From NCBI RefSeq assembly GCF_963921235.1, contig NC_086108.1:81966001-82030000 (forward strand): a stretch of DNA of 64,000 nt. The letters run 5' to 3'. Shown here piece after piece: positions 3,406 through 61,745 of this stretch. The translations under genes and the position numbers were made by a program. The notes below the pieces were generated by a model. It saw only the letters and a list, made by a program, of their open reading frames with translations. It was not told where the DNA came from and did no database searches. The first letter of the stretch is position 1. Every line of letters starts with the position of its first letter. This DNA is from Mobula hypostoma. Its lineage: Eukaryota.

Positions 3406-3579
3406 CTACAGTTCTCTCCTCTTCTGGCAGCATATGCCAATGGCTGCTGCACCTTTCCCCTTTCCTGTGTAGGATACCACACAGGTGTTGTCCACAGCAT
3501 ATGCTCCGTGAGTGTGTGACCGGTGGGAATATGCACTGCAACCAGTCAGGGTCCAGCCTTCGTCACATGACACCATCAC
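3406..3579 (-). CDS. PCSK9: PCSK9 exon 12 coding part
   Basis: [18 protein letters not shown]...[11 protein letters not shown]...[12 protein letters not shown] (TAG). Confidence 0.97.
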
Positions 3580-12500: not shown

Positions 12501-15500
12501 AATCATTGCCATGGTATAAAATGGCTAATATCAGGGCACAAAATGGTGAACTTTTCTGGTTTTAAGAATAACATTATTTTTGAAATGTGATCATAAAATT
12601 AAAAACTAAAACTAAAATTGCTAATATCAGGTATGCCCCCACCAAAGGTGCAAAGTTCACTATCAGGACTTTGATCTCTAAAAGCTGTTCCTGCAAAAGC
12701 ATACTCTCCTATGGATTTGTGAATGTACACCTAATGCTAGAACTGTGCAACAGAGCGGAAACACTTCCACAGAAAGCTCCTAGATGTCCCACGTACAAGA
12801 CTGATCCTGCCATTTTAAAAGTGATGGCATTTAGGTCCACATTCAAATTATGAAGAAAGGTGCATATATATGGTCCAGTTTAACATTTAAAAAAAAGGAA
12901 AATATCAAAAATCATAACATTAATAGATAAATTTATTTTTGTGAATTAGTTGTCTCCTCAACTCTGTATTCCACTCTTCAGTTCTTTTATTCAAAATTAT
13001 TCTCATTTGGCTTCAGTCCTTTGAAACTGTTTTATATTTTTCTCTGGCCTCCTTGTAAACCAAGCCCTGATAATTTGGAGATGTAAATTATTGTGCAAAT
13101 TTTGTATAAAGATCACTGTAATCTGGGCAATAAAGTAAATGCAAGAATGACTTGATACTGTTCACCCTGTTTCCTCCCTCCCTGGCATAATCCCAATATA
13201 GAAAGCTATTCAGTTATGTCCCAATATAAAGACACTACTCACCCGCCAGTGCTCCACTTACAGTACCCCTTCCCTGGCAATTAAGAATTCTCACAGTGCG
13301 GATATTGGCTCCTTTGGCAACACCAGAGTCGCGCCCACTAACCACACCCGCAGTGTGAGTTCCGTGGCTATCGCATTTACTAGCCTGCAGGAAAAAGAAG
13401 GCAAAACCATCTGGTCATTGGAGAAGCTCTTGAGCGGGAGCCAGATACTACAACTCAGTCTGTGCACCAACAGAGAAATGCAAATAACTTCCACCACAGT
13501 GTTACTCTACACTGCGTCAAGAAGTACCGCCACAAAGAAAATAATTTTGTCCCCATGTATGTTGCTTATCAATTTTTATGGGGCAATCATTATCGTTCCC
13601 GGCAAAGGTTATGAAAATGGAATTGATAGTACTATTAGCAGTGATTAAGCATATTTACATGGAGCACTGCTACAAGAAAACAGCATCCATCATCATAGTC
13701 CTCCACCATCAAGGCCATGATCTCTTCTTGCTACTACCATCCAGCAGGAGGTGTGGAGGCCTTGGGTCCCACACCACGAGGTTCAGGTCTCTGAACCAGA
13801 GTGGATAACTTCACACACCACAACTCTGAACTGATCCTACAACCTGCACAATCACTTTCAAGGACTTTTTACAACTCGGGTTCCCAGTATTATTTTTCAT
13901 TTGCACAATTGTCTTCTTTTGCACATTAGTTGTTTGTCCATCTTTGTTTATGTGTAGTTTTTTAAATAAATTCTATTGTATTTCTTTATTTTCCTGTAAA
14001 TGCCTGCAATAAATTGAATCTCACGGTAGAATATGGCAACACACATGTACTTTGATAATAAATGATACTTTGACTTAGATTTTCCTCAGGCATTTTAATT
14101 TCCTCGTTAGCCAAAGAACTCAAGGATCTTCATCAATGTGGCAAACTGAACCGAGACATTCAGTGATAATACACAAGATGAGCATCTCTAGGGTTTTCTC
14201 CACTTCTGACACCACTATGACTTTCTATCAATAGGTCCGTTTTGACAGTGGCACCAGGGACCTATACACAGTGGGAGATGTAGCAGCTCCCCACCCCTCC
14301 ACTGCCAATAATGTTGGTTTAATCTGCATTTAAAATGCCACTCTGAAAATAGTCAAGTTTAAATTACAATAATTCCCAAAGTAATGACAGTCTCTTGACT
14401 ACCAACTGCAGCTGTGAAGAAGCCATTCACCACCTTAACTTTAAAGGAAACCAAAAATTGGCAATTAGTTTTCAGTAATGTTTTTAAATGGGGGGGGGCG
14501 GAAGTAGAATCCTAAATGCAAGATAGTTTAGAGGGTTTGCTGTGCAAGTACGGGTATGTTAGTAATATTTGGTTGTAGTCTTGAGGTGCGCTTCAATGAA
14601 TCCTTATCTGCCACTTCCCAGTGATCTTTGGAATAAGAAATTAATTATTAAACCAAGATCCAGTTCCTCTGTTCTTTCTGTACAAATCCCCACCCTGAAT
14701 CCAATTAATTACTTCATCGAGGTTGAAAATTTCCAAGTGACTGCGTTACCTGGCGGTAAAACCGAGTGCCATCCTCTTCTGGAATACTTTTGAATTCTGT
14801 TGCAAAAACTTTCCCTTCAATCTCTCGATGGTTGCTCTGTACACTAGTGTCGAGCAAGTAAACTTCTGCCAGTTCACCATCATCTAATGAAATATGCAGT
14901 GAAAGGTTAGTGTATTAAATTACAACCTACCTGGTGAAGGAAAACTGCAAAATGATGTTTTCACACATGGAAATATGATGGGAAATGCCACAAATTGACA
15001 CTGCAGTGCATCTGCCACTCTCGGATGCCAGTTCACAGCATGAAGTTGGGTTTAGTACAACCGATTGTGAGATTAAATTGTCGTGAATTTTGTTTTGTCG
15101 TAGCAGACAAAAATTTTTGCAAGTTGCAGTAAAACATTTGTAAATAATAGTACAGAAGTCGAATAGTTAGGTAGTGTTCATGGACTGTTCACAAACCTGA
15201 TGGCAGAGGGCAAGACTTGAATGTGGGAGCAAATTCACACTAAAGGAGTGTAGCACAAGGATTTTAACTCTATTGTGGGAATTATTGATTGACATAAAAT
15301 TGAAAGTGAAATAAAACAATTAATGATTAATATATACAGTACAAGCAAAAACACAATGTACGATTTCCTAATTATGATAAAAGGACAAGTTAGTTTAGCT
15401 TATCTATTTATTAGTTACTGAAAGCTCTTTATGCATCAAAATAAAGTGGACTCACTTGGTGGGGTGTATTGTTCTGCTGAGTTTCCTGAAGGAACAATTT

Positions 15501-18500
15501 CATTTAGATTCCAAGGGATAGTCTGAGCAAACACAGAGGAGTCTTCTTCAATATACTCAACGTGAGGTAAACTCAGAGCCTGTGCAAAAGATGACACAAA
15601 AAAGCATTTCTAAATACTGTATTTGTCAGAGAAGAGTAAAATGAATAGAAAGACTTGTATTTGTATAGAATATTTCACAACATCAAAGGGCACTCCAAAA
15701 GCAACTTATAACCAATGTACAGTGGTTCTGAAATGTAGTCAGTGTTGCAGTATGGGTAATGTTGCATAATAAACTCTACAAAATGCAGTTTGAAAATGAA
15801 CAGTCTATTTTTGAGTTAATGTTGGTTGACATATTAGTACTGGAGGGAACACATTGATATAACAATGAGTTATTTGTCCATCAACTTGTAATTCAAAAGT
15901 GGGGTATGAAACTAACTGTGCGTCATTCCCTCAGTACTGGGTTGGAGAGTCAGCTATTGATTATGTCACCATGTCTCCAGAGCAGGACATGAATTCATGA
16001 GTTTACTCAAAGGTAAAACCTTGTTGTAACCTATAAAAATGAAGGGAATCATTTTGTCTTGGATCCACACTGAATGCAGTAACCAGCCATATATTGTGTA
16101 TATCAAATGTTTATTGACTTTAATATATTTGTTGAAGCAATCTAAAACCCCTGGAATGAGTTCCTTCAACACTTGGGTACATGTATACATCTGTTCTCCA
16201 TTCGTATGCTTTCTGTTCGTACAAAGAGGTTGCAATGGTGATCTAATATGCAAATATGTATTGTTCTTAAGATTATGTAAATTGTTTTCTCTCTGCCCTC
16301 TTATTTATGTTGGTTTCCAGACATTAATGTATAAATGACACATGTTATGAATAAGAGGAAAGGCAGCAGAAGGCTGACTGACAGGTGACATTCTCCAAAA
16401 CAGTGTTCTGCTGCAGATTTCCCCAACATGGGACAAAACAGGCCCTTCAGCCCACAACGGTGCACTGACATTTTTTAAACCTACCCCAAGATCGATCTAA
16501 ACCTTCTGTCCCACATAGCCATTTAATTTTATTTCCTCCATAAGCTTATCTGAGTCTCTTAAATGTCTGCATCTGACATTTACCCATACTTTCCTTGAAC
16601 CATCTTAAAATTGTGCTCTTGTACTCGCCATTGCCACCCTGGGAAAAAGGCACTGGCTCTCCACCTTATTTATGCTTCTTATCAAGTCATAAGCCTCTTG
16701 CCTCTCATTCTTTTTTGCTCCAAAGAAAAAGGCTCTAGTTCACTCAATCTCTCTAGTCGAGGTAACATCCTGGTAAATCTCCTCTACACTCTCTCTAAAG
16801 CTTCCACATCCTTCCTATAATGAAGTGAAGTGTACTGAACAAAATACTCCACTACGCAATAACCTCAGCTAGGAATCTAAGCATTGTTATTATACCACCA
16901 TTTACATGCATTAAACAGTTCAAATGAACACATCAACAGGTAACATTTGGTCCTACCGCTCTGCCACCCTCATATGTAACACATTGCTGCTCCTTGTTCA
17001 TATTTAACCCACCTCAATCCCCTCTTCCCGAGGGCCCACCCAACACTGAATGAAGGGGACTTTACCAGGTCCAGCATATCACTGCTCATTTTTATGACAA
17101 AGCCTTTGAAGACCTCATGGAATACCAGGACAAGTTCAGACATATAGCCATGCTTGGCGGCCTTGTTACGAAGCTTGCGTATGGTGTGCTCTGCCTGGGA
17201 TTTCTCTGTGTTTTCTTTAAGCACCACTATGTACTGGCCAGGCACCCTCCAAGCATCCTGAAAATACAAATGAGGAGGAGTTATTATAGTTAAGTATTCT
17301 TGAAAAAAGGATTCTAATCTTAACTATGAATCAGGACATTGTTTAATTGGTCAGTACTTCAATCTTCTGTTAATTAACCAGACCTTCTGTAGTTCATCAC
17401 ACCACCAAGCAGAAATACTCAATTAATTAATAATGGATTTGATCCCCGAATGAGATGTAATTACAAAATAATTCCATTGTACTTGTTAGAATGAATAACT
17501 TTCTGTTCCAACTTGCATTTATAAGGTATATTGCATGTATTAAAGCAAAACAGTTGTGAGAGCTTTATTGAACAACATGTAACACAAGTCTTACAAGGTA
17601 ATGTAAGATTTGTTTTTATTATTGCATGTGACTCAGGCAAGAATGCACCCTTATGGAGGCTAAGGGGACACCTGAGTGACTTTCTAGATTATTTCAAAGG
17701 GCAAAAAAGAGTTATAACATTTGCTGTCATTCTGGAAACAGAAGGAGGAGGCCAATTGGATTTATGAGACTGTTTCACGACATCCTTAAAATCATGGCTC
17801 AACCAATCTTGGTGTCAGCACCTTTCCCGCATTCTCTACTGTCTTCTGACTCCCTTGTACTTGTTAGAACTCAACAACTCTGCTTCCAGAACTCTCCGAG
17901 GTAGAGGATTCCAAAGAGTCCCAGTACTTTGAAAGAAGAAATATCCCATCATCTGCCTAAAATCGATGACTGTTTATTCTGAAGATATGCCCTTGAGTAA
18001 TAGATTCCCACCCCACCCCCACCCCCGCTCAGTGTTGATGCTAAGAGAACATTTCACTATCAATTCCCTCACAAAATCTGTTTTTCAAAATCTTTCAGTT
18101 TTCTATTCCAGATGAATTACATCTCAGTCTTCCAGGCTCCAAAGAGTATTGCCAAACTGCTCAACCTTTTGAGAATAACCCTTTGTGTATTGTCTCCAAT
18201 GTAATCACAAGCTTCATTTAGTAGGGAGTTTAGAGTGTACACTATCATTTGTCTCACTGTTAGAGCTGCATCAAAACAATCCTTTTTATAATCCATTGCA
18301 AGAAAGACAATGTTCTATTAGCCTTTGCAATTACATACTGTGGTATGCTAATTTCTGTAGATAAATTTGTATTTCAACCTTTTATAATTTCACTCAAATT
18401 AAATAATTCCTTTTTCATTCTTTGTTTCATTTCCTTTCAACTTCACATTTCCTCACATTCTCCATCTACCAACTCTTGCTCACTTGATCTATATTCTTTT

Positions 18501-21500
18501 GCAGTTTCAAAACTCTTCAACCTAGTTATCCTGGTGTCAGCAAATTTGACTACTGTACATTCAATCCTTGCATTCAAGTTACTAACCCCTCATCTGCTGC
18601 TTTCTGCCTTCTTTCCCCTTTGTTTCCACTAATCATCCACCAGTCTGCTATTCAGGTCTTCAGTAAAACAGCAGAACAGGATTGGGCCATTCAGCCCATC
18701 AAGTCTGCTCCACCATTCTATCATGGCTCATTTATTATCTCTCTCAACCCCACTCGCTTACCTTCTTTTTGTAATCTATGACGCCCTTACTAATCAAGAA
18801 ACTATCAGCTTCCACTTTAAATATACTCAAAGACTTGGCCCCCACAGCTTCTCCCTCAGGCTAAATAAATTCCTCCGCACCTATTTACGGAAGAATAGAT
18901 CCTTGTATTCTGAGGCTGTGCCCTCTGGTCCTAGACCCCCTAGTAATGGGAAACATCCTCTCCATGCCCACTGTATCGAAGCTTTTCAATATTCGATAAG
19001 CTTCAATGAGATTCTCTTCCCCCTCCCCCCATTCTTCTAAACTTCAGTGAGTACAAACCAGAGCCATTAAACAATTCTAATACACTAACCCTTTCATTCC
19101 CAGGATCATTCTTGTGAACCTCCTCTGGACCCTCTCCCATACCACCTTTTGAGAATCCTGCATGAGAACACCCACATTTTGCTCCACATTGAGAGAACAG
19201 CCTACACATTCATTCCGTCTATCAAGTTGCATGATCATACACTTTGCTACGCTGTATTCCATCTGCCACTTCTTTACCCATTCTTCTAATTTGTCCTAGT
19301 CCTTCTGTAGATTCCCTCTTTCCTCAACACTACTTGCTCCTCCACCTATCTTTCTATTGTCCACAAACTTCGCCACAGAGCCATCATTTCCATCATCTAA
19401 ATCATTGAATTTAGCACGCAAAGAAGCAGTCCCAACAACAACACCTGCGGAACACCACTAGCCATTGGCAGCCAATCAGAAGAGGCTTGCTTTGCCTCCT
19501 TCCAGTCAGCCACTGTTCTATCCATGCAGGCATCTTTCCTTTGATACCAGGGGCTTTTAACTTGTTTAGCCGCCTCATGTGTGGCACCTTCTTAAAGTTC
19601 TTCTGAAAATCCAAGTACACAACATAGACAATTCTCCTTTGTCTATCCTGCTTGATATTTCTTCAAAGAATTCCACCGGATTTGTCAGACCTGATTTCCC
19701 CTGAAGGAAACTATGCTGATGTTGGCCTATTTTACCATGTTCCTCCAAGAACCTCAGGACCTCATCCTTAATAATGGACACCAGCATCTTACCAACCACT
19801 GCAGTCAAGCTAACTGCCCTATAATTTCCTGCCTTTTGCCTTCCTCCCTTATGAAAGAGTGGAGTAACATTTGGAATTTTCTATTCCTCCAGAACTTGCC
19901 TGTATTATTCTAAAGTGTGGATATAAAGGCTATAAAGAAATTCCAGCAGATTCAATTCTCTGGAACAACAAACTATCTTCTGGAGGAACTCTTGAGTAGA
20001 AGAAGCTGCTTCACTGGTAGATTTCCTCCAACAGATCGTGTGCTGCTCCACATTTCCGCACCTGAATTCAGTCCACTGGTGAGGAATTCAGGGCAGAACA
20101 CAACATTAATATTGGAAGCACTTACACATCTGGGGCTATTGCCCTCTTCCAAAACAACTAATGAAGGGTCTCTGCCCGTCGACTGTACCTTTTCCAATAG
20201 ATGCTGCCTGGCCTGCTGCGTTCACCAGCAACTTTTATGTGTGAACCTTTATTTATCCAAAGTTTTCAAGACTTAAATTGGTACTTCTCTTTATTTCAAC
20301 GCATGCCCCATTAACAACCAACCTTTCTTTGCATAATCTTCTCTTGCATTGTTCGATAATCTGCTTTGCGCTTTTTTTTAATTAGAGGAAAGCCCTCCTG
20401 ACTTTAGATGAAACTGAGTAATTACTCTAAATGGAAATAAAATTCCGAATAGTCTTAATCGAAATACCTGTGGTCGGTGAAATGCTTTGGGGGGGCGGGG
20501 GGCGGCTGAAAGACAACGTTTCTTCCAAAATAAAGAGCCCAGTATCTCTGGCCCAACAATAAAACAGGGATACAGGGTTTTTTTAAAAAATCAATTCCCA
20601 ATATCTTTCAGCACCACCCTGTTGCAGTCAGTCAGTCTTTTATTGAAACAGCTACTACACCAGATTATCCTGGATGTCAGGAGCGTAACAATAATAAAAG
20701 GACTCGGTTAACAAAAACACGGATGGTACAGACAGCTATGGGGGAGCAAGGCAGAACGGTCAGCAGAGGGGCACACCCAACGTTGCATGAGATACATTAT
20801 CACTGAGCTGAAACGTTAACTGTTCCTCTCTCCGCCTAAGCTATCTGACCTGCTGGATAATTTTCGGCATGTTCTGCTTTTGTTTGAAACTTCCAACATC
20901 GAAACAATCGTTTATAGATGGGTTATTGCTGATGACCCCATGTCAACACGTCCCCCTATTACGTTACTTTTGCCGAATTACCGTTTACCAGCATTCATTG
21001 TTGCGGACGCACAGAGCGTCCGGAGTTAGGATAGAGCCAACAATTTGAAACCTTCTAGATAATCTAACTTTAATTTACGTTTTATTCGGACCCAAGCAAG
21101 AAGCAGTTTGCACATTTTTGCCCACTTAAGAAACGAACCACAAATATGAAGTGTACATAGTTCGCTTTCTTCCTCGGCCACATCCTTCACTCGCTTCATC
21201 AATGAGGATGTCGCCTCGCACAGAAAGATTTCAAGCTGAGAAGCAAAGTTTGAAGCAAAAGCGCGCACAAATGGCGGGGTTGGAACATCGTTATAAAAGT
21301 GGAAACAGTGAAATGCTCTTAAGACACGAGATAAACTGAAGAACTGCAGAATGCGGAGAAACTCTAGGCGGAGCTTACTATGTTGGAACGGTGGAAGGGT
21401 GCAGGTTTGTTCTGATTCCTCCTCTCAGCAAAAGAACCCGGGAGAGTCTCCCCTTCATCGATCATCTGCTCCCCTGCAAAGTCCGACGCAACCTGAAAAG

Positions 21501-21546
21501 ATGCAGAGCAGAAGAGAATCAGTAACCGCGCCGAGAAGCAGCCCAT
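3406..21546 (-). CDS. PCSK9: Proprotein convertase subtilisin/kexin type 9, complete 12-exon gene (spliced CDS 1977 nt, 658 aa)
   Basis: Manually assembled exons 21546-21379, 17257-17066, 15579-15456, 14883-14750, 13384-13243, 10424-10228, 9522-9339, 8676-8506, 7728-7580, 6632-6455, 4366-4203, 3579-3406 join in frame with GT-AG introns. Contains signal peptide, prodomain ending VFAQ, catalytic D (LLDTS), H (DSHGT), oxyanion N (AAGN), S (SGTSQ) and 18 Cys of the C-terminal domain. Confidence 0.98.
4203..4366 (-). CDS. PCSK9: PCSK9 exon 11 (164 nt)
   Basis: [57 protein letters not shown] acceptor, GTAAG donor. Confidence 0.96.
5915..6390 (-). mobile_element. CR1 LINE 3' fragment in intron 10, with a 49-nt Penelope-end insertion
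   Basis: Same 3' end sequence as the other CR1 copies in the window; insertion 6056-6104 is flanked by a 15-bp duplication. Confidence 0.8.
6455..6632 (-). CDS. PCSK9: PCSK9 exon 10 (178 nt)
   Basis: [62 protein letters not shown] acceptor, GTAAG donor; missed by the ORF track. Confidence 0.96.
7580..7728 (-). CDS. PCSK9: PCSK9 exon 9 (149 nt), C-terminal domain module 1
   Basis: [14 protein letters not shown]...[22 protein letters not shown] acceptor, GTAAA donor. Confidence 0.97.
8506..8676 (-). CDS. PCSK9: PCSK9 exon 8 (171 nt)
   Basis: [59 protein letters not shown] acceptor, GTGAG donor. Confidence 0.97.
9339..9522 (-). CDS. PCSK9: PCSK9 exon 7 (184 nt), LDLR-binding loop and catalytic Ser
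   Basis: [64 protein letters not shown] acceptor, GTACA donor. Confidence 0.98.
10228..10424 (-). CDS. PCSK9: PCSK9 exon 6 (197 nt), oxyanion Asn
   Basis: [24 protein letters not shown]...[23 protein letters not shown] acceptor, GTACA donor. Confidence 0.98.
10847..12335 (-). mobile_element. Degenerate Tc1-family (IR/DR, Passport-like) DNA transposon in PCSK9 intron 5
   Basis: TA|CAGTGCCTATAAAAAGTATTCA left end and TGAATACTTTTTATGGACACTG right end; inner and outer direct repeats; transposase remnants [10 protein letters not shown] (ATG 12040), [31 protein letters not shown], with frameshifts and deletion. Confidence 0.92.
13243..13384 (-). CDS. PCSK9: PCSK9 exon 5 (142 nt), catalytic His
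   Basis: [50 protein letters not shown] acceptor, GTGAG donor. Confidence 0.98.
13670..14080 (+). mobile_element. Rex1/Babar-like LINE 3' fragment
   Basis: Remnant ...LLPSSRR... C-terminus and an AT-rich 3' UTR ending in AATAAA plus a TTGAC-type tail; related to 59450-60170. Confidence 0.65.
14750..14883 (-). CDS. PCSK9: PCSK9 exon 4 (134 nt), catalytic Asp
   Basis: [47 protein letters not shown] acceptor, GTAAC donor. Confidence 0.98.
15456..15579 (-). CDS. PCSK9: PCSK9 exon 3 (124 nt), autocleavage site
   Basis: [44 protein letters not shown] acceptor, GTGAG donor. Confidence 0.98.
16430..16850 (-). mobile_element. CR1 LINE 3' fragment (intron 2)
   Basis: Similar to the CR1 3' ends at 45000-45530 and 60720-61220. 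Confidence 0.75.
17066..17257 (-). CDS. PCSK9: PCSK9 exon 2 (192 nt), inhibitor I9 prodomain
   Basis: CAG acceptor; [15 protein letters not shown]...[18 protein letters not shown] donor. Confidence 0.97.
18674..19905 (-). mobile_element. CR1 LINE ORF2 fragment (intron 1)
   Basis: RT remnants [19 protein letters not shown] and [13 protein letters not shown]. Confidence 0.9.
21379..21546 (-). CDS. PCSK9: PCSK9 exon 1 coding part: signal peptide and start of prodomain
   Basis: [23 protein letters not shown]...[10 protein letters not shown] then GTAAG donor; end resembles human ATFHRCAK. The start codon choice is inferred. Confidence 0.85.
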
Positions 21547-29049: not shown

Positions 29050-30300
29050 AAAAGATTAGGAGAATGAGCATAGAAGTGGCAGATGGAATACAGTGTTGGA
29101 AGTGTATTGTCATGCACTTTGGTAGAAGGAGTAAAAACGTAGACTATTTTCTAAATGGGGAGAAATTCAGAAATCTGAGGCGCAAAAGGTCTTGGGAGTC
29201 CTCATGCAGGTTGAGCTGGTGGTAAGCAAGGCAAGTGCAATGTTAGTATCATTTTGAGAGGACAAGAATATAAAGACAAGGATGTAATGCCAACGCTTTA
29301 TAAGACACTGCTGAGGCCTCACTTGCAATATCGTGAGCAGTTTGGGGGCCCTTACTTAAGAAAGGATGTGCTGATATCCTTTCAAAGGTGGTTCATGCAC
29401 GAACGTTGAATTCTCCAACTTCTGGTAATTCTCTCCTCCTCCCTTCCCTATCCCAGTTTCACTCTGCCCCCTCTCCCAGCTGCCTACTACCTCCCTCATG
29501 GTTCCACCTCCTTCTACTACCCATTGTGTTTTCCCCCAATCCTCCTCCACCTTTCCTGCCTATTACCTCCCTGCTTCCCCTCCCCCACCCCTTTATCTTT
29601 CCCCTTACTGGTTTTTCCACCTGGAACCTACCAGCCTTCTCCTTCCCACCCTCCCCCCACCTTCTTTATAGGGCCTCTGCTCCTTCCCTCTACAGTCCTG
29701 ACGAAGGGTTCCGGCCCAAAACGTTAACTGATCGCTTCCACGGATGCTGCCCGACCTGCTGAGTTTCTCCAGCGTGTTGTGAGGGTTGCTTTGACCCCAG
29801 CATCTGCAGAGTATCTTGTGTTCATGTAAATGATTGTGGGAATGAAAGGCATATCATATGAGGGGCATTTGATGGCTCTGGGTCTGTACTTGCTGGAATT
29901 TAGAAGAATGAGGGGGATCTCATCAAAACCTTTTTAATGTTGAAAGTACTAGATAGAGTGGATGTGGAGATGATGTTTCTTATAGTGGGTGAATCTAGGA
30001 CTAGAGGGCACAAGCTCAGAATAGAGAGATGTCCATTTAGAAATGAGATGAGGAAGGACTTCTTTAGCCAGAGGGTGGTATGTCCGTGGAGTTTGTAGCC
30101 GCAGAAGCTGTGGACGCCAGGTCATTGGGTGTATTTAAGGTGGAGTTTGATAGATTCTTGATAATTCGAGGCATTAAAGGTTACAGGGCGAAGGCAGGAG
30201 ATCGGGGTTGAGAGGAAAATGGATCAGCCATGATCAAATGGTGGAACAGACTCGATGGGCTGAATGGCCTAATTCTGCTCCTATGTCATATGGTCTTATG
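29050..30300 (+). mobile_element. CR1 3' fragment interrupted by a Penelope 3' end (~29398-29819)
   Basis: CR1 ORF2 C-terminal remnants; GTTCATG repeated at 29391-29397 and 29820-29826. Confidence 0.85.
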
Positions 30301-35351: not shown

Positions 35352-37800
35352 TAGAAGGATGTAAAGCAGGACCTCCAGAGTAAGACTCTCTGGGTTGCTG
35401 CCTGTGCCACACACCAGAGAGGGCAAGGATAGGATGATCTGGCAGATGGATGTGTGTCTAAGGAACCGGTTCGGGGGGCAGGGTTTCAGATTTATTCATC
35501 GTTGGGATTTCTTCTGGGGAAGGTATGACCTGAACAAAGGGGACGGGATCCACCTGAACCGAGGGTGGGGTTGGTGGGGTTGGGTGGCGGGGTGTGACCA
35601 ATATCCTTTTGGGCAGCTGTTAGCTGTTGGGGTGGGTTTAAGCTAATTTGGTAGGGGAATGGGAACCAGAGTGTTATGGCTGAGGATAGGAATGTTGGTT
35701 TACAAGCAGAGGTAGTGTGTAGTGAGCCTCTCAGGAAGGACGGGCAGATGATAGGGCAACATTGCAGTCAGTGGGATGGGTTGTAGGGTAAAAGTGGAAC
35801 AAGATTGAAAAGTGTGACAAACACAGGACTGAGGGTGTTATATTTGAATGCACACAGTATATAGATAAGGCAGCACAGTTAGAGATTGCCAGATATGGGT
35901 ATTATGGAGTCACGGCTGCAAGATGATTGTAACTGGGAGCTTAATATCCAAGGATACCCAATATGTTGAAAGGACAGGCGGGTAGGCAGAGGAGGAGGAT
36001 TGGGTCTGATGGTAAAAACAAAAAATCAAACTTTTAGAAAGAGGTGACATAGGATTGGAAGATGTAGAATCCTTGTGGATAGAGTGAAGAAAATGCAAGG
36101 GTATGAAGACCCTGATGGGAGTTACTTACAGGCCTCCAAACAGTACCAGGATGTGGTCTACAAATTACAATGGGAGATTAAAAAAGCACGTCAAAAAGGC
36201 ATGTTACGATAGTCATGGGGAAGTTCAATGTGCAAGTAGGTTGGGAAAACCAAGTTGATGCTGGATCCCAAGAGAGGGAATTTGTGGAATGCCTCTGAGA
36301 TGGCTTTTTGGAGCAGCTTGTGGTTGAGCCCACGAGGGGATCAGCTATTCTGGATTGGGTGTTGTTCATGAACTGGATACGATTAAGGAGTTTAAGGTAC
36401 AGGAACCCTGAGGAAATAATGATTGTAATATGATAGAATTCACCCTGCAATTTGAGTGGAAGAAGATAAAGTCAGGCGTATTAGTATTACAGTGGAGTAA
36501 AGGGAATTACGGAAGCATGAGAGAGGAGATGGCCAGGGATGACAGCAGAGCAGTAATGGCTAAAGTCCTGATGAAGGGTCATGGCCCAAAATGTTGACTG
36601 TACTCTTTTCCATAGATGCTGCCTGGCCTGCTGAATTCCTCCAGCATTTTGTGTGTGTTGCTTGGATTTCCAGCATCTGTAGATTTTCTCTGTTTGGGAA
36701 TGGCTGGAGTTTCTGGGAGCAACTCAGAAGGCACAATATAGAAACATCCCAAAGAAGAGGAAGGATTCTAAAGGCAGGATGATGTAACTGTGGCTGACAA
36801 GGAAAGTCAAAACCAACATAAAAGCAAATGAGAGTATAATAGAGCAAAAATTCGTAGGATGTTAGAGGATTGGGAAATTTTAAAAAACCAACAGATGGCA
36901 ACCGAAAAAAACCATAAGGGCAGAAAAGATGAAATATCAAGGTAAGCTAGCTAATAATATCAAAAATGATATCAAAAATATTTTTTCCCGATACTGTATA
37001 TGAAGAGTAAAAGAGAGCTGAGAGTAGATATTAGACCATCGCAGAATGACACTGGAGAGATAGTAATGGAGACAACGAAATGGTGGATGAATTGAATAAA
37101 TATTTTGCATCAGTCTTCACTGTGGAAGACACTAGAGGTGTGCTGGTAGTTCAAGAGTGTCAAGATACAGAAGGGAGTGTAGTTGCTATTACTAGGGAGA
37201 TGGTGCAGTTGCTATAACTGGGAAACCAAAAGGTCTGAAGGTAGATGTCACCTGGACCTAATGGACTACACCCCAGAATCCCAAACGAGGTGGCTTGAGT
37301 AATTAAGAGCATTAGTAACGATTTTTCAAGAATCACTAGATTCTGGCATAGTTCCAGAGGACTGGAAAATTGCAAATGTCACTCCACGCTTCACGAAGGA
37401 ACGGAGGCAGAAGAAAAGACATTCTAGGCCAGTTAGCTTAACCTCAGTGGTTGGGAAGATGGTGGAGTCGATTGATAAGGATGTGGTTTCAGGGTACTTG
37501 GAGGCATATGACAAAATAGGCCAACGTCAGCATGGATTCCTAAAGGGAAAATCTTGCCGGACAAACCTGTTAGAATTCTTTGAAGAAATAACAAGCAGAA
37601 TTAAAATCAGAATCAGGTTTAATATCAACAGCCTGTGAAATTTGTTAACTTAGCAGTACAATGTAATGCATGATAATATAGAAAAAAATAAATAAGTAAA
37701 TCAAACAACAGGAATTCTGCAGATGCTGGAAATTCAAGCAACACACATCAAAGTTGCTGGTGAACGCAGCAGGCCAGGCAGCATCTCTAGGAAGAGGTAC

Positions 37801-37836
37801 AGTCGACGTTTCAGGCTGAGACCCTTCGTCAGGACT
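37801..37836 (-). ncRNA. Minimal type I hammerhead ribozyme (Penelope-associated), intact core
   Basis: AGTC-CTGACGA-AGG(GTCTCAG)CCT-GAA-ACGT-C-GACT: stem I AGTC/GACT, stem II AGG/CCT, palindromic stem III ACGT, GUC cleavage triplet. Confidence 0.85.
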
Positions 37837-39387
37837 AACTGAAGGAAGAGTTAGTAAGAGAATTGAAAGTGGGGGGGGGGAGATCCAAAATGATAGGAGA
37901 AGACAGGAGGGGGAGGGATGGAGCCATGAGCTGGACAGGTGATAGGCAAAGGGGATATGAGAGGATCATTGATCAGGAGGCCCAGGGAGAAAGACAAGGG
38001 AGGGGGGAAAACCAGAGGATGGGCAAGGGGTATAGTGAGAGGGACAGAGGGAGAAAAAGGAGAGTGAGAGAAAGAATGTGTGTATAAAAATAAATAACAG
38101 ATGGGGTACGAGGGGGAGGTGGGGCATTAGCAGAAGTTAGAGAAGTCAATGTTCATGCCATCAGGTCGGAGGCTACCCAGACGGAATGTAAGGTGTTGTT
38201 CCTCCAACCTGAGTGTGGCTTCATCTTTACAGTAGAGGAGGCCATGGATAGACATGTCAGAATGGGAACGGGATGTGGAATTAAAATGTGTGGCCACTGG
38301 GAGATCCTGCTGTCTCTGGCGGACAGAGCGTAGGTGTTCAGCAAAGCGGTCTCCCAGTCTGCATCGGGTCTCGCCAATATATAGAAGGCCACATCGGGAG
38401 CACTGGACGCAGTATATCACCCCAGCCGACTCACAGGTGAAGTGTCACCTCACCTGGAAGGACTGTCTGTGGCCCTGAATGGTGGTGAGGGAGGAAGTGT
38501 AAGGGCATGTGTAGCACTTGTTCCGGTTCTCCGTAACTTCTGCCACCTCCAATGGGATCCCACCACTAAGCACATCTTTCCCTCCCCCCTCTCTCTGCTT
38601 TCCGCAGGGATCGCTCCCTACGCGACTCCCTTGTCCATTCGTCCCCCCCATCCCTCCCCACTGATCTCCCTCCTGGCGCTTATCCTTGTAAGCGGGACAA
38701 GTGCTACACATGCCTTTACACTTCCTCCCTTACCACCATTCAGGGCCCCAGACAGTCCTTCCAGGTGAGGTGACACTTCACCTGTGAGTCGGCTGGGGTG
38801 ATATACTGCGTCCGGTGCTCCCGATGTGTCCTTCTATATATTGGCGAGACCCGACACAGACTGGGAGACCGCTTTGCTGAACACCTACGCTCTGTCCGCC
38901 AGAGAAAGTAGGATCTCCCAGTGGCCACACAATTTAATTCCACATCCCATTCCCATTCTGACATGTCTATCCACGGCCTCCTCTGCTGTAAAGATGAAGT
39001 CACACTCAGGTTGGAGGAACAACACCTTATATTCCGTCTGGGTAGCCTCCAGCCTGATGGCATGAACATTGACTTCTCTAACTTCCGCTAATGCCCCACC
39101 TCCCCCTCGTACCCCATCCGTTATTTATTTTTATACACACATTCTTTCTCTCACTCTCCTTTTTCTGCCTCTGTCCCTCTGACTATACCCCTTGCTCATC
39201 CTCTGGTTTCCCCCCCCCCCTTGTCTTTCTACCTGGGCCTCCTGTCCCATGATCCTCTCATATCCCCTTTTGCCTATCACCTGTCCAGCTCTTGGCTCCA
39301 TCCCTCCCCCTCCTGTCTTCTCCTATCATTTTGGATCTCCCCCTCCCCCTCCCACTTTCAAATCTCTTACTAACTCTTCCTTCAGTT

Positions 39388-39423
39388 AGTCCTGACGAAG
39401 GGTCTCAGCCTGAAACATCGACT
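39388..39423 (+). ncRNA. Minimal hammerhead ribozyme copy
   Basis: AGTCCTGACGAAGGGTCTCAGCCTGAAACATCGACT; stem III ACGT changed to ACAT. Confidence 0.7.
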
Positions 39424-42400
39424 GTACCTCTTCCTGGAGATGCTGCCTGGCCTGCTGCGTTCACCAGCAACTTTGAAATAAGTAAATCAATTACAGTCAG
39501 TATATAAACGTGTATTAAATAGTTCAATTAAATATAGTGCAAAAACAAAAATAATTTAAAAAGTGAGGTAGTGTCCAAGGGTTCAATGTCCATTTAGATG
39601 GCAGAGGAGAAAAAGCTGAGTGTGCTGACTTTCTGAGACATCGCTCCCTAAAGATATCCTGGATACTTTGTAGGCTAGTACCCAAGATGGAACTGACTAG
39701 ATTTACAATCTTCTGCAGCTTCTTTCGATCCTGTGCAGTAGCCCTTCCATACCAGATAGTGATGCAGCCTGTCAGAATGCTCTCCATGGTACAACTATAG
39801 AAGTTTTTGAGAGTATTTGTTGACATGCCAGATCTCTTCAAACTCCTAATAAAGTATAGCCACTGTCTTGCCTTCTTTATAACTACATCGATAGGTTGGG
39901 ACCAGGTTCGTCCTCAGAGATCTTGACACCCAGGAGCTTGAAGCTGCTCACTCTCTCCACTTCTGGTCCCTCTATGAGGATTGGTATGTGTTCCTTCGTC
40001 TTACCCTTCCTGAAGTCCACAATCAGCTCTTTCAGCTTACTGACATTGACTGCCAGGTTGTTGCTATGGCACCACCACTCGTTGGTATATCTCTCTCATG
40101 TATGTCCTCTTGTCACCACCTGAGATTTTACCAATAATGGTTGTATCATCAGCAAGTTTATAGATGGTATTTGAGCTATGCCTAGCCACACAGTCGTGTA
40201 TACAGAGAATAGAGCAGTGGGCTAAGCACACACCCCTGAGGTGCGCCAGTGTTGATCGTCAGTGAGGAGGAGATGTTATCACCAATCTGCACAGATTGTG
40301 GTCTTCCGGTTAGGAAATCGAGGATACAATGGTAGAGGGGGGTACAGAGGCCCAGGTTCTGCAACTTCTCAATCAGGATTGTGGGAATGATGGTATTAAA
40401 TGCTGAGCTGTCGTCGATGAACAGCATCCTGACGTAGATGTTTGTGTTGTTCGGGTGGTCTAGAGCTGTGTAGAGAGCCATTGAGATTGCATCTGCCATT
40501 GACCTATTGTGGTGATAGGCAAAATACAATGGGTCCAGGTCCTTACTGAGGCAGGACTTCAGTCTAGTCATGACCGACCTCTCAAAGCATTTCATCACTG
40601 TCGATGTGAGTGCTACCAGGCGATAGTCATTAAGGCAGCCCACATTATTCTTCTTAGGCACTGGTATAAATGTTGCCTTTTTGAAGCAAGTGGGAACTTC
40701 TGCCTGTAGCAGTGAGAGGTTGAAAATGTCCTTGAATACTCCTGCTAGTTGGTTGGCACAGGTATTCAGAGCCTTACCAGGTACTCCATCGGGACCTTCC
40801 GCCTTAAGAGGGTTCACTGTCTTTAAAAACAGCCTAACATCGGCCTCTGAGATGGAGATCACAGGGTCATCAGGTGCAGCAGGGATCTTCACAGTTGTAG
40901 TTATATTCTCCCTTTCAAAGCATGCACAGAAAGTGTCGAGTTCATCTGGTAGTGAAGCATCGCTGCCATTCATGCTATTGGGTTTCGCTTTGTAGGAAGT
41001 AATGTCTTGCAGACCCTGCCAGAGTTGTCGTACATCTGATGTCACTCCAACCTCGTTCGAAATTGTCTCTTCACCCACCGCAAATCATACCTGGTTGGCT
41101 GGTACAGGCCTGGGTTGCCAAACTTGAATGCCACAGATCTAGACTTTAGCAGACGACGTACCTCCTGGTTCATCCACAGCTTTTGGTTTGGGAATGTACA
41201 GTAAGTCTTTGTGGGCACACACTCATCCACACTGATTTTAAGGAAGTCGGTAACAACTGCAACATACTCATCCAGGTTCGAAGATGAATCCTTGAATACA
41301 GTCCAGTCCACTGATTCAAAGCAGTCCTGTAGGCGCTCCTGTGCTTCCCTTGTCCATATCTTCTTGGTCCTCACTGCTGGTGCTGCAGTCTTCAGTCTCT
41401 GCCTGTACTCAGGGAGTAGAAGTACAGCCAGGTGATCAGACTTTCCAAAGTGAGGGCGTGGAATAGCACGGTAGGCATTCTTGATGGTGGTGTAGCAATG
41501 TCCCAGTGTGTTGTTTCCTCTGGTATTGCAAGTGATCTGTTGATGATAGTTGCTTAGTGATTTTTTCAGACTGTCCTGGTTAAAATCTCCCAGAACAATG
41601 AAAGGGTTAATCATATGAGCAGCAATCAAAGGCTCTGGGCCTGTATTTACTGCAACTTAGAAGAAAGAGGGAGGATCACATTGAAACCAATTGAATGTTG
41701 AAAAGCATCAACAGAGTGGATGTGAAGAAGATGGTTCCTTTGGTGGGCCATCTAGGATGGAGGAGACAGCCTCAAACTAGAGGGACATCCACTTAGAACA
41801 GAGATGAGGAGGAATTTCTTTAGCCAGAAGGTGGTGAATCTGTGGAATTCATTGCCACAGCTGGCTGTGGAGGCCAGGTCACTGAACGCAGTCCAGGCGG
41901 ATGTTGATAGGTTCTTGATTAGTCAGGACATGAGAAGTTCTGGAGAGAAGGCAGAAGAATGGGGTTGAGAGAGAAATGGATCAGCAATGATGAAATGCTA
42001 GGGTGGACCCGATGGGTTGAATGGCCTAATTCTACACCCATGTCTATGGTCTTATGGTCACATTGCTGGAGATTGTTGGCCAATGATTGATAGAAGTGTG
42101 TGGCACTGAATTGTGCCTGAGGTTAGGTATGCAATGGTGGTTTATAATACTGGAGGATGCATTCCTTGCTCTGAGTACATGTGAGATTACTAAACTTCTT
42201 GCAACAGTGCATTTGGATTTTCACGGGTCGGCTCTGGGTTTTGACCTCCACGAATATCTGTCTCCGTAGTTTTCAGAGTTTCTGTCTGAAAGACCTCCTG
42301 GCTCTCCAAAAATACTGGACCTCTCCTACTTTTCTTCACTTCCTTTAAGCCTCCATTCCACACCTGAGAACCTTGACTTGCTTCCTCCAATGTGGTGCAA

Positions 42401-42865: not shown

Positions 42866-43079
42866 CAAACACGAGGAAATCTGCAGATGCTGGAATTTCA
42901 AGCAACACACATCAAAGTTGCTGGTGAATGCAGCAGGCCAGGCAGCATCTCTAGGAAGAGGTACAGTCGACGTTTCAGGCCGAGACCCTTCATTAGGACT
43001 CTCGGCCCGAAACGTTGACTGTACCTCTTCCTAGAGATGCTGCCTGGCCTGCTGCGTTCACCACCAACTTTAATGTATT
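42866..43079. mobile_element. Short palindromic Penelope-end element with TSD
   Basis: ~95-bp inverted arms centred on the hammerhead region; AAG(T/G)TTGAAATCT at 42853-42865 and 43080-43092. Confidence 0.85.
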
Positions 43080-48815: not shown

Positions 48816-49107
48816 AACGCAAACAACAGGAATTCTGCAGGTGCTGGAAATTCAAGCAAAACACATCAAAGTTGCTGGTGAACGCAGCAGGCCAGGCAGC
48901 ATCTCTAGGAAGAGGTACAGTCGACGTTTCAGGCCGAGACCCTTCGTCACGAGTAACTGATCTTCCCCTCCCCCTCCCACTTTCAAATCGCTTACTAACT
49001 CTTCCTTCAGTTAGTCCTGACGAAGGGTCTGGGCCTGAAACATCGACTGTACCTCTTCCTAGATATGCTGCCTGGCTTGCTGCGTTCACCAGCAACTTTG
49101 ATGTGTG
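48816..49107. mobile_element. Palindromic Penelope-end element with a 14-bp TSD, inside the CR1 5' region
   Basis: TTACCTCTTCTTAA at 48802-48815 and 49108-49121; inverted arms. Confidence 0.9.
49013..49048 (+). ncRNA. Minimal hammerhead ribozyme copy
   Basis: AGTCCTGACGAAGGGTCTGGGCCTGAAACATCGACT. Confidence 0.7.
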
Positions 49108-52100
49108 TTACCTCTTCTTAACTGTGCCTCCGCCTGTTCATGTCGAAGCCTGTTAAGCCAAAGCCTCCCACCCTGACACTGGCACACTCAAACAGTGGCC
49201 ACTTCAACAATGGCCACTCTGCTTGGGCCTACCTTCCTTTTCTTTGCAGCTGAGCTTGGGCCTCTGACAATGACACGTACCGTGCCTGTGCAGCCCCAGA
49301 AGACTGGCCTTGACTGAGTTTGCTCCTTTTATTCTCTCTCTCCTGATTTCTGTAGGGCTCTGATATCGGTTACTCACACTCCCTGTGCCTGACCGGATTT
49401 TCCTGAGTCTGCTCTCTAAACTCCAGTAGGCCTGTGACGCCAAAAAATCTTTCAAATCTCTCACCTTGGGTGGGACTACAACCAGAAGTCATGGGTTGAG
49501 GGTGAAAGGTGAAAAATTTAAGGGGAAGATGAGGGGAAACTTCTTCACTCAGAGGGGACTGAGAATGTGGAATTAGTTTGGATAGGTACATTGATGGTAG
49601 GGACATACATGGAGGGATATGTTCCTGGTGCAGGTCAATGGGAGTAGACATTAAAATGGTTTTCGCATGGACTAGATGGGCCAAGGAGCCTGTTTCTGTG
49701 CTGTACTTTTCTATAACACCTCTGATCTTAAACCAATGTCATTTTAAAAACCCACTCCCTGTGTTTTCACTTTGTCTATGCTTTCATGGTCTTACATATG
49801 TCTTTCAGGTCATCTCTCAGTCTCCTACATTCAAAGGAGTAAAGTCCTCTCCTTATAATTCAGGCAACATCCTGGGAAATTTTTTCTGTACTCCTAATTT
49901 AATAACATCTTTCCTATAACTAGGTGACCAAAACTGGCCTCAATACTCGCCAACATCTTAAATGATTGCCACATAACTTTCCATTTCCTATACTCATTAC
50001 CCTGGCTGATGAAGGCCTCTGTGCCAAGTGCCTTCTTTGCCACTCTGTCTACCTGTGACATTGCTTTCAACAAACCGCACATGCATTCCTAGATCCCTCT
50101 GTTCCATAACACGCCCCAGGGCCCAGGCACTCATTGTACAAGTCGCACCCTGATCTGATCTACCAAAATGCAATACCTCACATTAATCTGGATTGAAGGC
50201 CATTTTCCAATCCTCAGCCCACATGCCCAGCCGATAAAGATCAACCAGTGATTTTTCATTCTACGTTACCTGCACGCCACCTATTTTAGTGCCATCCGCA
50301 AATTTTACTTGTGCATTCATGTACAAATCGTTTACATAAGTGACAAACAAAAAAGGTCTGCAGCAGCCCCTGTGGCACCCCACCAGAGAAAGGCCCCAGT
50401 CTGAGAAACAGCCTTCAATTCAAAGTACCTTTATTATAAAAGAATGTATAAAGGATACAACCTTGAGATTTATTTGTTCACAGTGGCCACAATGCAAGAA
50501 ACCTGAAAGAGCCCCATTAAAGAAAAAAATAAAAATAAAAGACCAACACCCGATGCATAAGAGAAAGAAAAGGAAACAAAAACTATACAAACCATCAACG
50601 GTTCTGCATCTTACAGAACCTCTGGGGCAGTTGCGAATCCATCTTCTCTCTGATTCAATGCAATCTAGTGTTTTAGACAGCCAGCCATCAGGGGTCTTAC
50701 TAAGGTCGAGTCCATATAGAAGACAGCTACTCTACCTTTATTTGTTGTCTTGATTACCTCAAAGAACTCAAAAGAGATTTATCAGACATGACACCTCATG
50801 CTTTCAGAGGCATCGGTGGAAGCGGAAGGCAGTGCTATTGGTCTGGCTGCTGCTGCCTTGCCCAGATGGTCATCCCCCTCATCAGTATCCAAAGGGGTAT
50901 ACCTGTTGCTGAGGGGAATGGCCACAGGGGACCCTGCACTGATCTTTTTCTCCCTTTACCTCTCTCGGTGTTCACCATCTACTCCCTGAATTCTGCACTC
51001 TGGGTGTAACCACCTGCTCAAAAGTCTGATCTACCAATTGCTCTGCCTCCCAGATGATCCTTAGTTCATCCAGCTCCTTAATGCGATCTTCCAGGAGCTC
51101 GAATTGGCTGTGCTTCCTGAAGATGTAGTTCTTCAGGGAGATGATCAGGTTCCATGAATTCTCCTATCCAGGAGGAGCATTCCACAGCCCTATCTGCCAT
51201 CCTGCCTGCACTGTACTCTGGGCAACCAGGACCAAATCAGCAATAACAAGAGGAAAAACCTACCTGTTTCTTTGGCCTCAGCCCCTTCTCTCCAAAGCCT
51301 CTAAGTTCCACTCTGAGTCTAGCCCCGACTCTGATGATGGCTGCTCCACTAGAACCTACCGCTCTTCTATGGTTTAAAAATAAGAAAAACCCCCACGCAA
51401 GGAGAAAGAATTCACCGTGCTTGGTGGTGCTCCGCCTGCCTTCTGCTGCCGCCGATGCCTCCGATGCTTTGGGACAGTCAACACAGCTTTGTGGGTGAGA
51501 TTTCATGTCTGAGCCTTAGAAGGGTAGGGTGATGTCAGGAGGAGCAATAGTCATAGGGGACTCGATAGTTAGGGGGACAGATCGGAGATTCAGCGGCAGG
51601 AAAGTGATGCCAGGATAGTGTGTTGCCTCCCGGGTGCTAAGGTCCAGGATGTCTTTGAGCAGTTGCAGAATATTCTTGAGGGGAGGGTGAGCAGCCAGAG
51701 GTTTTGGTACATATTGGTACCAGTGACATAGGCAGGAGGGGGGTAGAGATCCTGTGCAGTAAGTTTAGGAAGTTAGGAGGGAGGCTTCAAGATGGGAATC
51801 TCCAGATTACTCCTGGTGCAACAAGCTAGGGAAGGTTACAACAGGAAGAGAGCGCAGATGAGTGGGTGAGTGAGCAGATGGTGCAAGCGGCAGGGTTTCA
51901 AATTCTTGGATCATTGGAACCTTTTCTGGGGAAGGGGTTACCTGTACAAGTGGGACCCAAAATCCTGGGAGGGAGATTTGCTAATGCTATCGGGGAGGGT
52001 TTAAACTAAATTTGTGGAGGGTAGGAACTGAAGTAAAGAGGCAGAGGATGGGACATTTGGCACACAAGGAGAGACAGCTTGTAGGGAGTTTGAGAAGAAG

Positions 52101-53456: not shown

Positions 53457-53850
53457 AACACGAGGAAATCTGCAGATGCTGGAATTTCAAGCAACACACA
53501 TAAAAGTTGCTGGTGAACGCAGCAGGCCAGGCAGCATCTCTAGGAAGAGGTACAGTTGACATTTCGGGCTGAGACCCTTCGTCAGGACTAACTGAAAGAA
53601 GAGCTAGTAAGAGATTTGAAAGTGGGAGGGGGGGTGGAGATCCCAAATGATAGGAGAGGGAGGGATGGAGCCAAGAGCTGGACGGTTGATTGGCAAAAGG
53701 GATATGAGAGGATCATGGGACAGGAGGCCCAGGGAGAAAGAAAAAGGGGAGGGGAGAAAAAAACCAGAGGATGGGCAAGGGGTATAGTGAGGGGGACAGA
53801 GGGAGAAAAAGGAGAGAGAGGAAAAGAATGTGTGTATATAAATAAATAAC
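53457..53850 (-). mobile_element. Penelope 3' fragment inserted in CR1 ORF2
   Basis: Closely similar to 37705-38100; GGATGTT at 53450-53456 and 53851-53857 splits [10 protein letters not shown]. Confidence 0.9.
53554..53589 (-). ncRNA. Minimal hammerhead ribozyme copy
   Basis: AGTCCTGACGAAGGGTCTCAGCCCGAAATGTCAACT; core kept, stems partly mutated. Confidence 0.6.
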
Positions 53851-54390
53851 GGATGTTGCCTGGATTGGTGAGCGTCCCTTATGAGAATAGGTTGAGTGAA
53901 CTGGCCTTTTCTCCTTGGAGCGACAAAGTATGAGAGGTGACCTGATAGAGGTGTATAAGATGACGAGAGGCATTAATCATGTGGATAGCCAGAGGCTTTT
54001 TTCCAGGGCTGAAACAGCTAACATGAGGGGCATAGTATTAAGGTGCGTAGAAATAGGTACGGGGGGGGGGGGGAATGTCGGTGCAAGTTTTTCACAAAAA
54101 GTGGTGGGTGCATGGAATGCACTGCCATCAATGGTAGTAGAGGCAGATACAATAGGGGTTTTTAAGAGACTCTCAGGTAGGTACATGGAGCTTAGAAAAA
54201 TAGAGGGCTATGCAGTAGGGAAATCCTAGGCAATTTCTGGAGTAGGTTACATGGCCAGCACAACATTGTGGGCTGAAAGGCCTGTAATAAGCTGTAGATT
54301 TCTATGTTCTATGTCCTAAGTCAGACCCTGTCTCTAAATATTGCTAGTTTCTATCCCTCAGAAACTCCTTCAGTAACTTCACCACTACCA

Positions 54391-60713: not shown

Positions 60714-61745
60714 AACATAGCACAGTACAGGCCCTTCGGCCCACAATGTTGTGCCGACCCTCAAACCCTGCCTCCCATATAAGCCCCCACCTTAAATTCC
60801 TCCATATACCTGTCTAGTAGTCTCTTAAACTTCACTAGTGTATCTGCCTCCACCACTGACTCAGGCAGTGCATTCCACGCACCAACCACTCTCTGAGTAA
60901 AAAACCTTCCTCTAATATCCCCCTTGAACTTCCCACCCCTTACCTTAAAGCCTGTCCTCTTGTATTGAGAAGTGGTGCCCTGGGGATGAGGCGCTGGCTA
61001 TCCACTCTATCTATTCCTCTTATTATCTTGTACACCTCTATCATGTCTCCTCTCATCCTCCTTCTCTTCAAAGAGTAAAGCCCTAGCTCCCTTAATCTCT
61101 GATCATAATGCATACTTTCTAAACCAGGCAGCATCCTGGTAAATCTCCTCTGTACCCTTTCCAATGCTTCCACATCCTTCCTATAGTGAGATGACCAGAA
61201 CTGGACACAGTACTCCAAGTGTGGCCTAACCAGAGTTTTATAGAGCTGCATCATTACATCGCGACTCTTAAACTCTATCCCTCGACTTATGAAAGCTAAC
61301 ACCCCATAAGCTTTCTTAACTACCCTATCCACCTGTGAGGCAACTTTCAGGGATATGTGGACATGTACCCCGAGATCCCTCTGCTCCTCCACACTACCAA
61401 GTATTCTGCCATTTACTTTGTACTCTGCCTTGGAGTTTGTCCTTCCAAAGTGTACCACCTCACACTTTTCCGTGTTGAGCACCATCTGCCATTTCTCAGC
61501 CCACTTCTGCATCCTATCAATGTCTCTCTGCAATCTTTGACAATCCTCTACACTATCTACAACACCACCAACCTTTGTGTCGTCTGCAAACTTGCCAACC
61601 CACCCTTCTACCCCCACATCCAGGTCGTTAATAAAAATCACGAAAAGTAGAGGTCACAGAACAGATCCTTGTGGGACACCACTAGTCACAATCCTCCAAT
61701 CTGAATGTACTCCCTCCACCACCACCCTCTGCCTTCTGCAGGCTA
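60714..61745 (-). mobile_element. Young 5'-truncated CR1 LINE
   Basis: Uninterrupted 233-aa RT C-terminal ORF 60940-61641 (KFADDTK, LVRPHLEYC). Confidence 0.95.

Follow-up and report, generated by a model that had tools for sequence, protein, structure and literature searches.

The motif at 37801 of the window (the whole stretch of Mobula hypostoma DNA that was analysed, 64 kb) is very probably a real ribozyme motif of a Neptune-type Penelope-like family that has been hugely amplified in rays, and it sits in a copy that is most likely inert. This reading is drawn from the published cutting data, from a monomer that is predicted to misfold and from the duplex that would form with an antisense arm of the same insertion. 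In an active element, by analogy with the mechanism in the literature, the RNA would be transcribed as a partial tandem, so that two motifs may pair through their ACGU palindromes and each would lend its GUC strand to the core of the other. The dimer would then cut after C17, probably only with the help of the element's protein. The 37801 copy itself is a by-product of retrotransposition, namely one 5'-truncated inverted insertion of 1.8 kb with one hammerhead per strand. We attribute its intact state to its youth, since it has not yet undergone the CpG changes that have disrupted neighbouring copies, and not to maintenance by the host.

Anatomy and folding of the motif

The hammerhead is on the minus strand (37837-37800), and the plus strand at 37800-37837 is its reverse complement. 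As RNA it reads (U)AGUC, CUGACGA, A, GGGU, CUCA, GCCU, GAAA, CG, U and C, followed after the predicted cut by GACU(G). In hammerhead numbering C3 is 37832, G12 is 37812 and C17 is 37805, and cutting is predicted between 37805 and 37804. The whole motif was assigned by the descriptor of PMC4209133 (Fig. S7) together with a position-by-position reading, and its parts were read from the sequence as follows.

37800..37837, minus strand: minimal type I hammerhead motif (min-HHR)
37837-37833 with 37804-37800, minus strand: stem I, 5 bp (4 Watson-Crick and 1 U.G)
37832-37826, minus strand: CUGACGA
37825, minus strand: extra A, one added nucleotide after CUGACGA
37824-37821 with 37816-37813, minus strand: stem II, 4 bp, closing pair G.U
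37812-37810, minus strand: GAA
37809-37806, minus strand: ACGU palindrome (palindromic 15.2-16.2), predicted to permit a dimer
37805, minus strand: C17

The preliminary description of this DNA had proposed a descriptor scan, for which the published RNAmotif descriptor was used (stem I of 3-7 bp, CUGANGA(+1), stem II of 3-7 bp, loop of 3-10, GAAANNUH; PMC4209133, Fig. S7). It gave three matches in the 64-kb window, at 37805 (-), 39392 (+) and 49017 (+); in 100 first-order Markov controls the mean was 0.01. A stricter descriptor that requires a palindromic stem III gave a single match in the window, the 37801 copy (control mean 0.04 in 50). Among the three descriptor-fitting copies (37801, 39388 and 49013), the ACGU palindrome is kept only in 37801. 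This is also the only one of the nine best-kept copies scored in which core, palindrome and both stems are all intact, the other eight being defective on position-by-position comparison. The perfect core that had been claimed for this copy was thus found, and the claim of a minimal type I architecture with a palindromic stem III was borne out by the descriptor and by ACGU.

The Rfam scan of the window gave no hammerhead match up to E 10, and the folding energy of the motif is unremarkable (fold z-score -1.27). Together with the missing covariation among the window copies, these results would fit a chance look-alike within a repeat, unrelated to hammerheads. We consider this extremely improbable, as every descriptor element is present against 0.01 expected per window, the position is the one where Penelope-like elements carry their hammerhead (PMC4209133), and the extra nucleotide and the palindrome are there although the descriptor does not demand them. 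Canonical type I hammerheads in Rfam have a stem III, whereas the 37801 motif has no Rfam match and forms no stem III as a monomer; we ascribe the Rfam miss to this absence.

With the min-HHRs of Penelope-like elements as described by Cervera and De la Pena (2014, PMC4209133), the motif has in common the type I topology, CUGANGA with an extra nucleotide, G10.1, GAAA-NN-UH with a palindromic 15.2-16.2 and a U-rich stretch upstream. Common to both are also mostly single motifs in truncated elements, with opposite-strand pairs nearby. That paper described, in 2014, hammerheads of Penelope-like elements, fish Neptune elements among them, which have spread as single motifs by the thousand, and it noted opposite-strand pairs as well; no cartilaginous fish is among its 56 listed examples. 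The consensus given there closes stem II with G10.1-C11.1 (above 80%), whereas the 37801 copy has U11.1 and closes with G.U, as do several of the listed members. Its stem II is also short (4 bp) in comparison with those min-HHRs. An Acropora Neptune example has a layout like that of 37801, CUGACGAA, with a 4-bp stem II, a tetraloop, a CG palindrome and a U-rich upstream stretch. Our search by title or abstract, outside which most subscription literature lies, found no paper on this ray family.

In the predicted minimum-energy fold of the monomer (-11.0 kcal/mol), G5-G8 are paired with C15.2-C17 and no stem III is formed; the open form has a probability of 0.0006. The active dimer was calculated at -11.5 kcal/mol versus -22.0 kcal/mol for two monomers, by nearest-neighbour energies that ignore tertiary core contacts. 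In a context of 199 nt, stem II is predicted to form (0.70-0.78) and stem I is not (0.02 or less). The duplex of the motif with the antisense arm was computed at -76.9 kcal/mol, and a minus-strand read-through RNA would bury the motif in this long duplex. Metazoan min-HHRs have been reported not to cut as monomers and to cut weakly as dimers (PMC4209133), an account repeated in a review in which host factors are suggested (PMC6765202). The anole Poseidon hammerhead was reported to cut only with the element's protein and to be dispensable for insertion in vitro; RNA-seq gave no read ends at its cut site (PMC11167929). Under the folding model, the 37801 copy is most likely inert; for the ray family, we infer the dimer mechanism by analogy with these systems.

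The carrier element and the copies in the window

The origin from a Penelope-like element, claimed earlier, was supported by the end of a GIY-YIG ORF 291 nt upstream of the hammerhead on the same strand, which places the hammerhead in the pseudo-LTR position, and by homologues of this ORF with RT and GIY-YIG. The insertion is composed of the following parts.

38127..38528, minus strand: C-terminal ORF remnant, with the end of the Cys linker and the GIY-YIG endonuclease; one in-frame stop before the domain
37702..37799, minus strand: 3' part of the pseudo-LTR with optional tail; several copies end there, with a loose-end peak at 37702 in all four runs
38521..39476, plus strand: inverted second arm of the same insertion, with a longer ORF remnant, CxxxxCxxC linker, two internal stops, pseudo-LTR, hammerhead at 39388-39423 and no tail
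37690..37704, plus strand: left target-site duplication, 15-bp, identical to 39476-39490
39476..39490, plus strand: right target-site duplication, 15-bp, perfect

An alignment of the minus arm (38528 to 37702) with the plus arm (38521 to 39476) covers 787 nt at 94.8% identity. The tail is present on the minus arm only, and the 3' end of the element is at about 37702-37704. Because these similar arms lie between the two copies of a perfect 15-bp duplication, 37801 (-) and 39388 (+) trace back to one event and are the two arms of a single inverted insertion, which is a new context for the motif. The arms have in common U11.1, the CUCA loop and a stop that interrupts the frame ahead of the nuclease domain, so that a donor with defects of its own is probable; alternatively, the sharing may come from independent CpG changes or from conversion of one arm by the other.

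The GIY-YIG remnant matched Pfam PF01541 with E 2.5e-4 and 21.7 bits, slightly below the cut-off of 22.6. Its best homologue is a Mobula protein (90% identity) with upstream RT-region sequence, and further homologues were found in other rays, sharks and invertebrates (23 matches among 83 candidates). RVT_1 and GIY-YIG were detected together in three of the five homologues scanned (P0006, P0016, P0021), mostly below the Pfam cut-offs. The RT part is absent from the 37801 insertion, and no full-length element of the family is present within the 64-kb window. In the alignment, the CxxxxCxxC linker precedes the nuclease in the plus arm and in the homologues; a Cys-rich linker marks Neptune and also the Nematis clade (PMC8557442). 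The carrier thus appears to be a 5'-truncated Neptune-type Penelope-like element, a clade assignment made from the layout of Cys linker and GIY-YIG.

With the Neptune clade (Craig et al. 2021, PMC8557442), the insertion shares a C-terminal GIY-YIG after a Cys-rich linker, a hammerhead in the pseudo-LTR, and a 5'-truncated insertion next to which lies an inverted copy, with the tail on one end only; the target-site duplication likewise belongs to the insertion structure described for these elements. It differs in being a 3' end only. Anole Poseidon PAc (Frangieh et al. 2024, PMC11167929) also has a minimal motif without stem III in its pseudo-LTR, and the genomic copies in the ray likewise come from uncut RNA, but PAc belongs to a different clade and is protein-assisted. 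Non-LTR retrozymes (Li et al. 2026, bioRxiv 10.64898/2026.07.22.740005), which have been reported in one chondrichthyan, are similarly non-autonomous, hammerhead-bearing and derived from Penelope-like pseudo-LTRs. These are head-to-tail tandems, whereas the ray copies are single or inverted, with no same-strand tandem in the window.

All 13 places named in the preliminary description were recovered. Blastn found 20158 (E 4e-27), and an edit-distance scan found the other 12. The edit-distance scan, which was run without a chance control, gave 14 matches at distance <=10. The weakest traces (28915, 44382 and 62316) have as support blastn E values of 0.003 and 0.01, or solely an edit distance of 9-10. 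The other copies and the small inverted insertions are listed here.

39388-39423, plus strand: palindrome broken (ACAU)
49013, plus strand: palindrome broken
42965, minus strand: G5>A; starts exactly at stem I; ACGU palindrome and GUC-GACU strand kept
48919, minus strand: C3>G; starts 6 nt upstream of stem I; ACGU palindrome and GUC-GACU strand kept
53457..53855, minus strand: 5'-truncated copy, hammerhead at 53554-53589, in which C11.1 is kept but the palindrome and the first pair of stem I are broken
29397..29822, plus strand: copy of an older subfamily, hammerhead at 29694-29729; G12>A
36564..36696, plus strand: older short copy; starts exactly at stem I; G12>A, palindrome broken
25788: A6>C
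42866..43076, both strands: small inverted insertion with the 42965 (-) copy and a partial plus arm (43000); 13-bp duplication with 1 mismatch
48820..49109, both strands: small inverted insertion with 48919 (-) and 49013 (+); 14-bp duplication

The copies are partly non-independent, as 37801/39388, 42965/43000 and 48919/49013 are each the arms of a single inverted insertion. The 48919 copy had been called truncated, but its motif is not cut internally. No intact same-strand partner of 37801 was found within the window; the nearest copy on its strand, at a distance of 5.1 kb, carries G5>A.

Further remains were observed in the window, about 42% of which is multi-copy within the window itself. 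The sequence at 42930-43055 is a near-perfect 126-nt hairpin that comes from an inverted Penelope-like micro-insertion. Matches of this hairpin to mir-5681 and mir-3926 in Rfam were below gathering and were rejected, as they reflect the inverted insertion; if they are transcribed, hairpins of this kind could supply small-RNA pathways. The family of the 37801 element has also left an older GIY-YIG remnant at 25350-25878 (+), into which a short hammerhead-headed copy (25821-25725, minus strand) is inserted. A tail-only insertion of 52 nt, 98% identical to the 3' end of the element, is in a PCSK9 intron at 6053-6104 (-), and the duplication around it is 18-bp with 1 mismatch. Very old traces that resemble the RT region and linker of the element (tblastn E 1e-4 to 0.05) were found at 22700-23650 (+), about 1-2 kb upstream of the PCSK9 promoter. 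Other mobile-element debris, all on the minus strand (47756-48217, 40185-41084, 45706-46263, 60943-61653 and 11567-11875), comprises a GDSL-esterase-like ORF, three LINE-type RT fragments and a Tc3-type transposase fragment.

Family abundance, decay and the starts of copies

Four of 24 listed sequencing runs (four organisms and four studies; none on record as RNA) were aligned to 37680-37900 at 80% likeness. The contigs that matched the module numbered 31,700, 9,524, 1,984 and 1,056 per run, and neither these figures nor the run depths, which are sums over contigs, are copy counts. The runs support a very high abundance of the 37801 element family in related animals, in agreement with the earlier expectation of very many copies.

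Among the in-motif variant rows listed for the four runs, CpG positions make up eight of nine. U11.1 accounts for 37, 78, 36 and 42% of the depth (about 36-78%), and C11.1 is the majority in three of the four runs (58-64%) and 22% in the fourth. At the same CpG, G12>A accounts for 11, 3, 15 and 22% of the depth, like other core CpG sites. Simple CpG decay of the 37801 copy was considered for U11.1 and rejected, because its share is far above the decay level of other CpGs in all four runs. The U11.1 change, which keeps a G.U pair, has spread through active lineages and the change that removes G12 has not; a small number of founder events, or even a single one, may account for the excess of U11.1. 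In all four runs the motif is bracketed by peaks of loose ends at 37799 and 37836, and therefore the flanks differ between subfamilies while the motif is kept. The change 37801 A>T was seen in 26% and 36% of the depth in runs X9 and X15.

Stem covariation across copies, which had been put forward as a test, was absent in 17 window copies (a single cell with changes on both sides, a value that 380 of 500 shuffles also reached). This was to be expected because the window copies are related and decay after insertion, so that the test has low power; the fold is accordingly not shown by covariation in these copies, in which only CpG-type decay was seen. A metagenome search with P0001 was uninformative (29 loci, mostly the RT part). 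Two of its loci had descriptor matches (L013 and L029), both on the strand opposite the P0001 match, and L026 gave one weak blastn match (E 0.19). The match in L013, at 1583-1615 (-), is a minimal hammerhead whose stem II has 7 bp; a related RT fragment lies close by on the opposite strand.

The points at which copies begin concern the 5' edge of stem I, where one more feature was found.

37835..37856, minus strand: pyrimidine tract ending in AG just before stem I, 3' splice site-like in sequence

Six of 21 copies have the start of their local alignment within -4..+1 nt of the stem I 5' edge, and none of the 21 has it within 2 nt of the cut site, which argues that copies come from uncut RNA. 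The binomial value of this excess is about 1e-6 under exponential truncation, for an interval chosen afterwards and copies that were picked by similarity and are in part non-independent. In run X19, the loose ends at 37834, 37835 and 37836 number 206, 202 and 608, versus 339 at the tail end; those at 37836 are purine-rich on the plus strand, like diverged element sequence, and part of the ends at 37834-37836 will be diverged upstream element sequence. The pyrimidine tract with AG precedes stem I in six of the seven copies that reach upstream. By analogy with the Penelope of D. virilis, in which an intron ends at helix I (PMC4209133), the tract may have a function in splicing. A conserved branch point UACUAAC (37856-37850) was also considered and dropped, since 37851 differs in most of the depth across the four runs.

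These start points raise the possibility that the motif is a hammerhead by ancestry whose main job is that of a folded landmark, either for the start of the template (promoter or 3' splice site) or for a stop of reverse transcription. A hammerhead-headed module of ~135-nt would then be copied as a unit from uncut RNA, which is compatible with the best explanation. The clustering of starts at the stem I edge and not at the cut site, the concentration of X19 loose ends, the tract upstream of stem I, the D. virilis intron and the use of uncut RNA as main substrate in the anole element (PMC11167929) all point this way, but the interval was picked after the data were seen, the copies were selected by likeness to the module, alignment ends can reflect subfamily divergence, and a clear duplication is found in only some of the short copies. 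We therefore hold the landmark role to be doubtful though conceivable. In rays, it might tentatively be proposed that a splice-site-like 5' edge sets the start of the RNA or the stop of reverse transcription, and that the ~135-nt module is mobilised in a SINE-like manner from uncut RNA. If this is true, the processing of Penelope-like RNA, a step that is still unexplained, would be recorded naturally in the many dated copies.

The PCSK9 neighbourhood and host RNA

The gene in the window was located by tblastn with ray PCSK9 proteins.

3409..21546, minus strand: PCSK9, 12 coding exons, ATG at 21546

Its exon 2 is 97% identical to a Hemitrygon protein. As had been stated earlier, the motif is on the same strand as PCSK9 but upstream of it, both being on the minus strand and the motif 16,255 nt from the ATG. 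The PCSK9 promoter (21770-21650, minus strand) contains an exact copy of the human SRE, GTGGCGTGAT, at 21729-21720, unique in the window against 0.03 expected (human sequence from PMC10036592). A TATA-like box is near 21660, and both the box and the SRE are within 200 nt of the ATG. A putative HNF1-like site is about 30 nt upstream of the SRE. The control of PCSK9 by sterols may go back as far as the jawed vertebrates themselves.

The motif should be absent from PCSK9 transcripts, because it is 16,255 nt upstream of the ATG and the promoter elements are within 200 nt of that codon. A neighbouring gene that spans the motif was also sought and rejected, as the few weak Pfam matches were all below the cut-off. 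Between 21.7 and 64 kb, no convincing Pfam gene exon was found in 178 of the 179 ORFs of >=45 aa outside multi-copy DNA, a search that short or non-coding exons, or the intron of a gene farther off, could escape; the remaining ORF had been matched to RVT_1 before. Within PCSK9 there is a single motif copy (20158), which is antisense and has no GAA.

Cutting of host RNAs had been suggested for copies on transcribed strands. In such a case, dispersed sense copies in one pre-mRNA or intergenic transcript would form (hetero)dimers, and the 37801 core would cut the GUC strand of, for example, 42965. In favour of this are the complete core of 37801, the abundance of the family in the four runs, and two copies at distances of 5 and 11 kb on its own strand, 42965 (-) and 48919 (-), in which both the ACGU palindrome and the GUC-GACU strand are preserved. 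Against this, 37801, 42965 and 48919 are all arms of inverted repeats (duplexes of -76.9 and -123.8 kcal/mol were computed for two), no gene was found across these three copies, and the copy inside PCSK9 is antisense without GAA. Published dimers moreover cut weakly at a spacing of 20-108 nt (PMC4209133), and for the anole element no RNA-seq reads ended at the cut site (PMC11167929). We regard such cutting as improbable. The suggestion was not supported for the 37801 copy, which is intergenic as tested, lies in a 95%-identical inverted repeat, misfolds as a predicted monomer and has no intact same-strand partner.

The finding at 37801 itself matters little, because this kind of motif has been known since 2014 and the copy is most likely a fossil. 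The abundant and partly young ray family allows genome-scale tests of the role of the hammerhead in Penelope-like elements. Across the whole family one could test where copies start with respect to the cut site, which changes in the core become widespread, and whether introns are depleted of intact sense copies.
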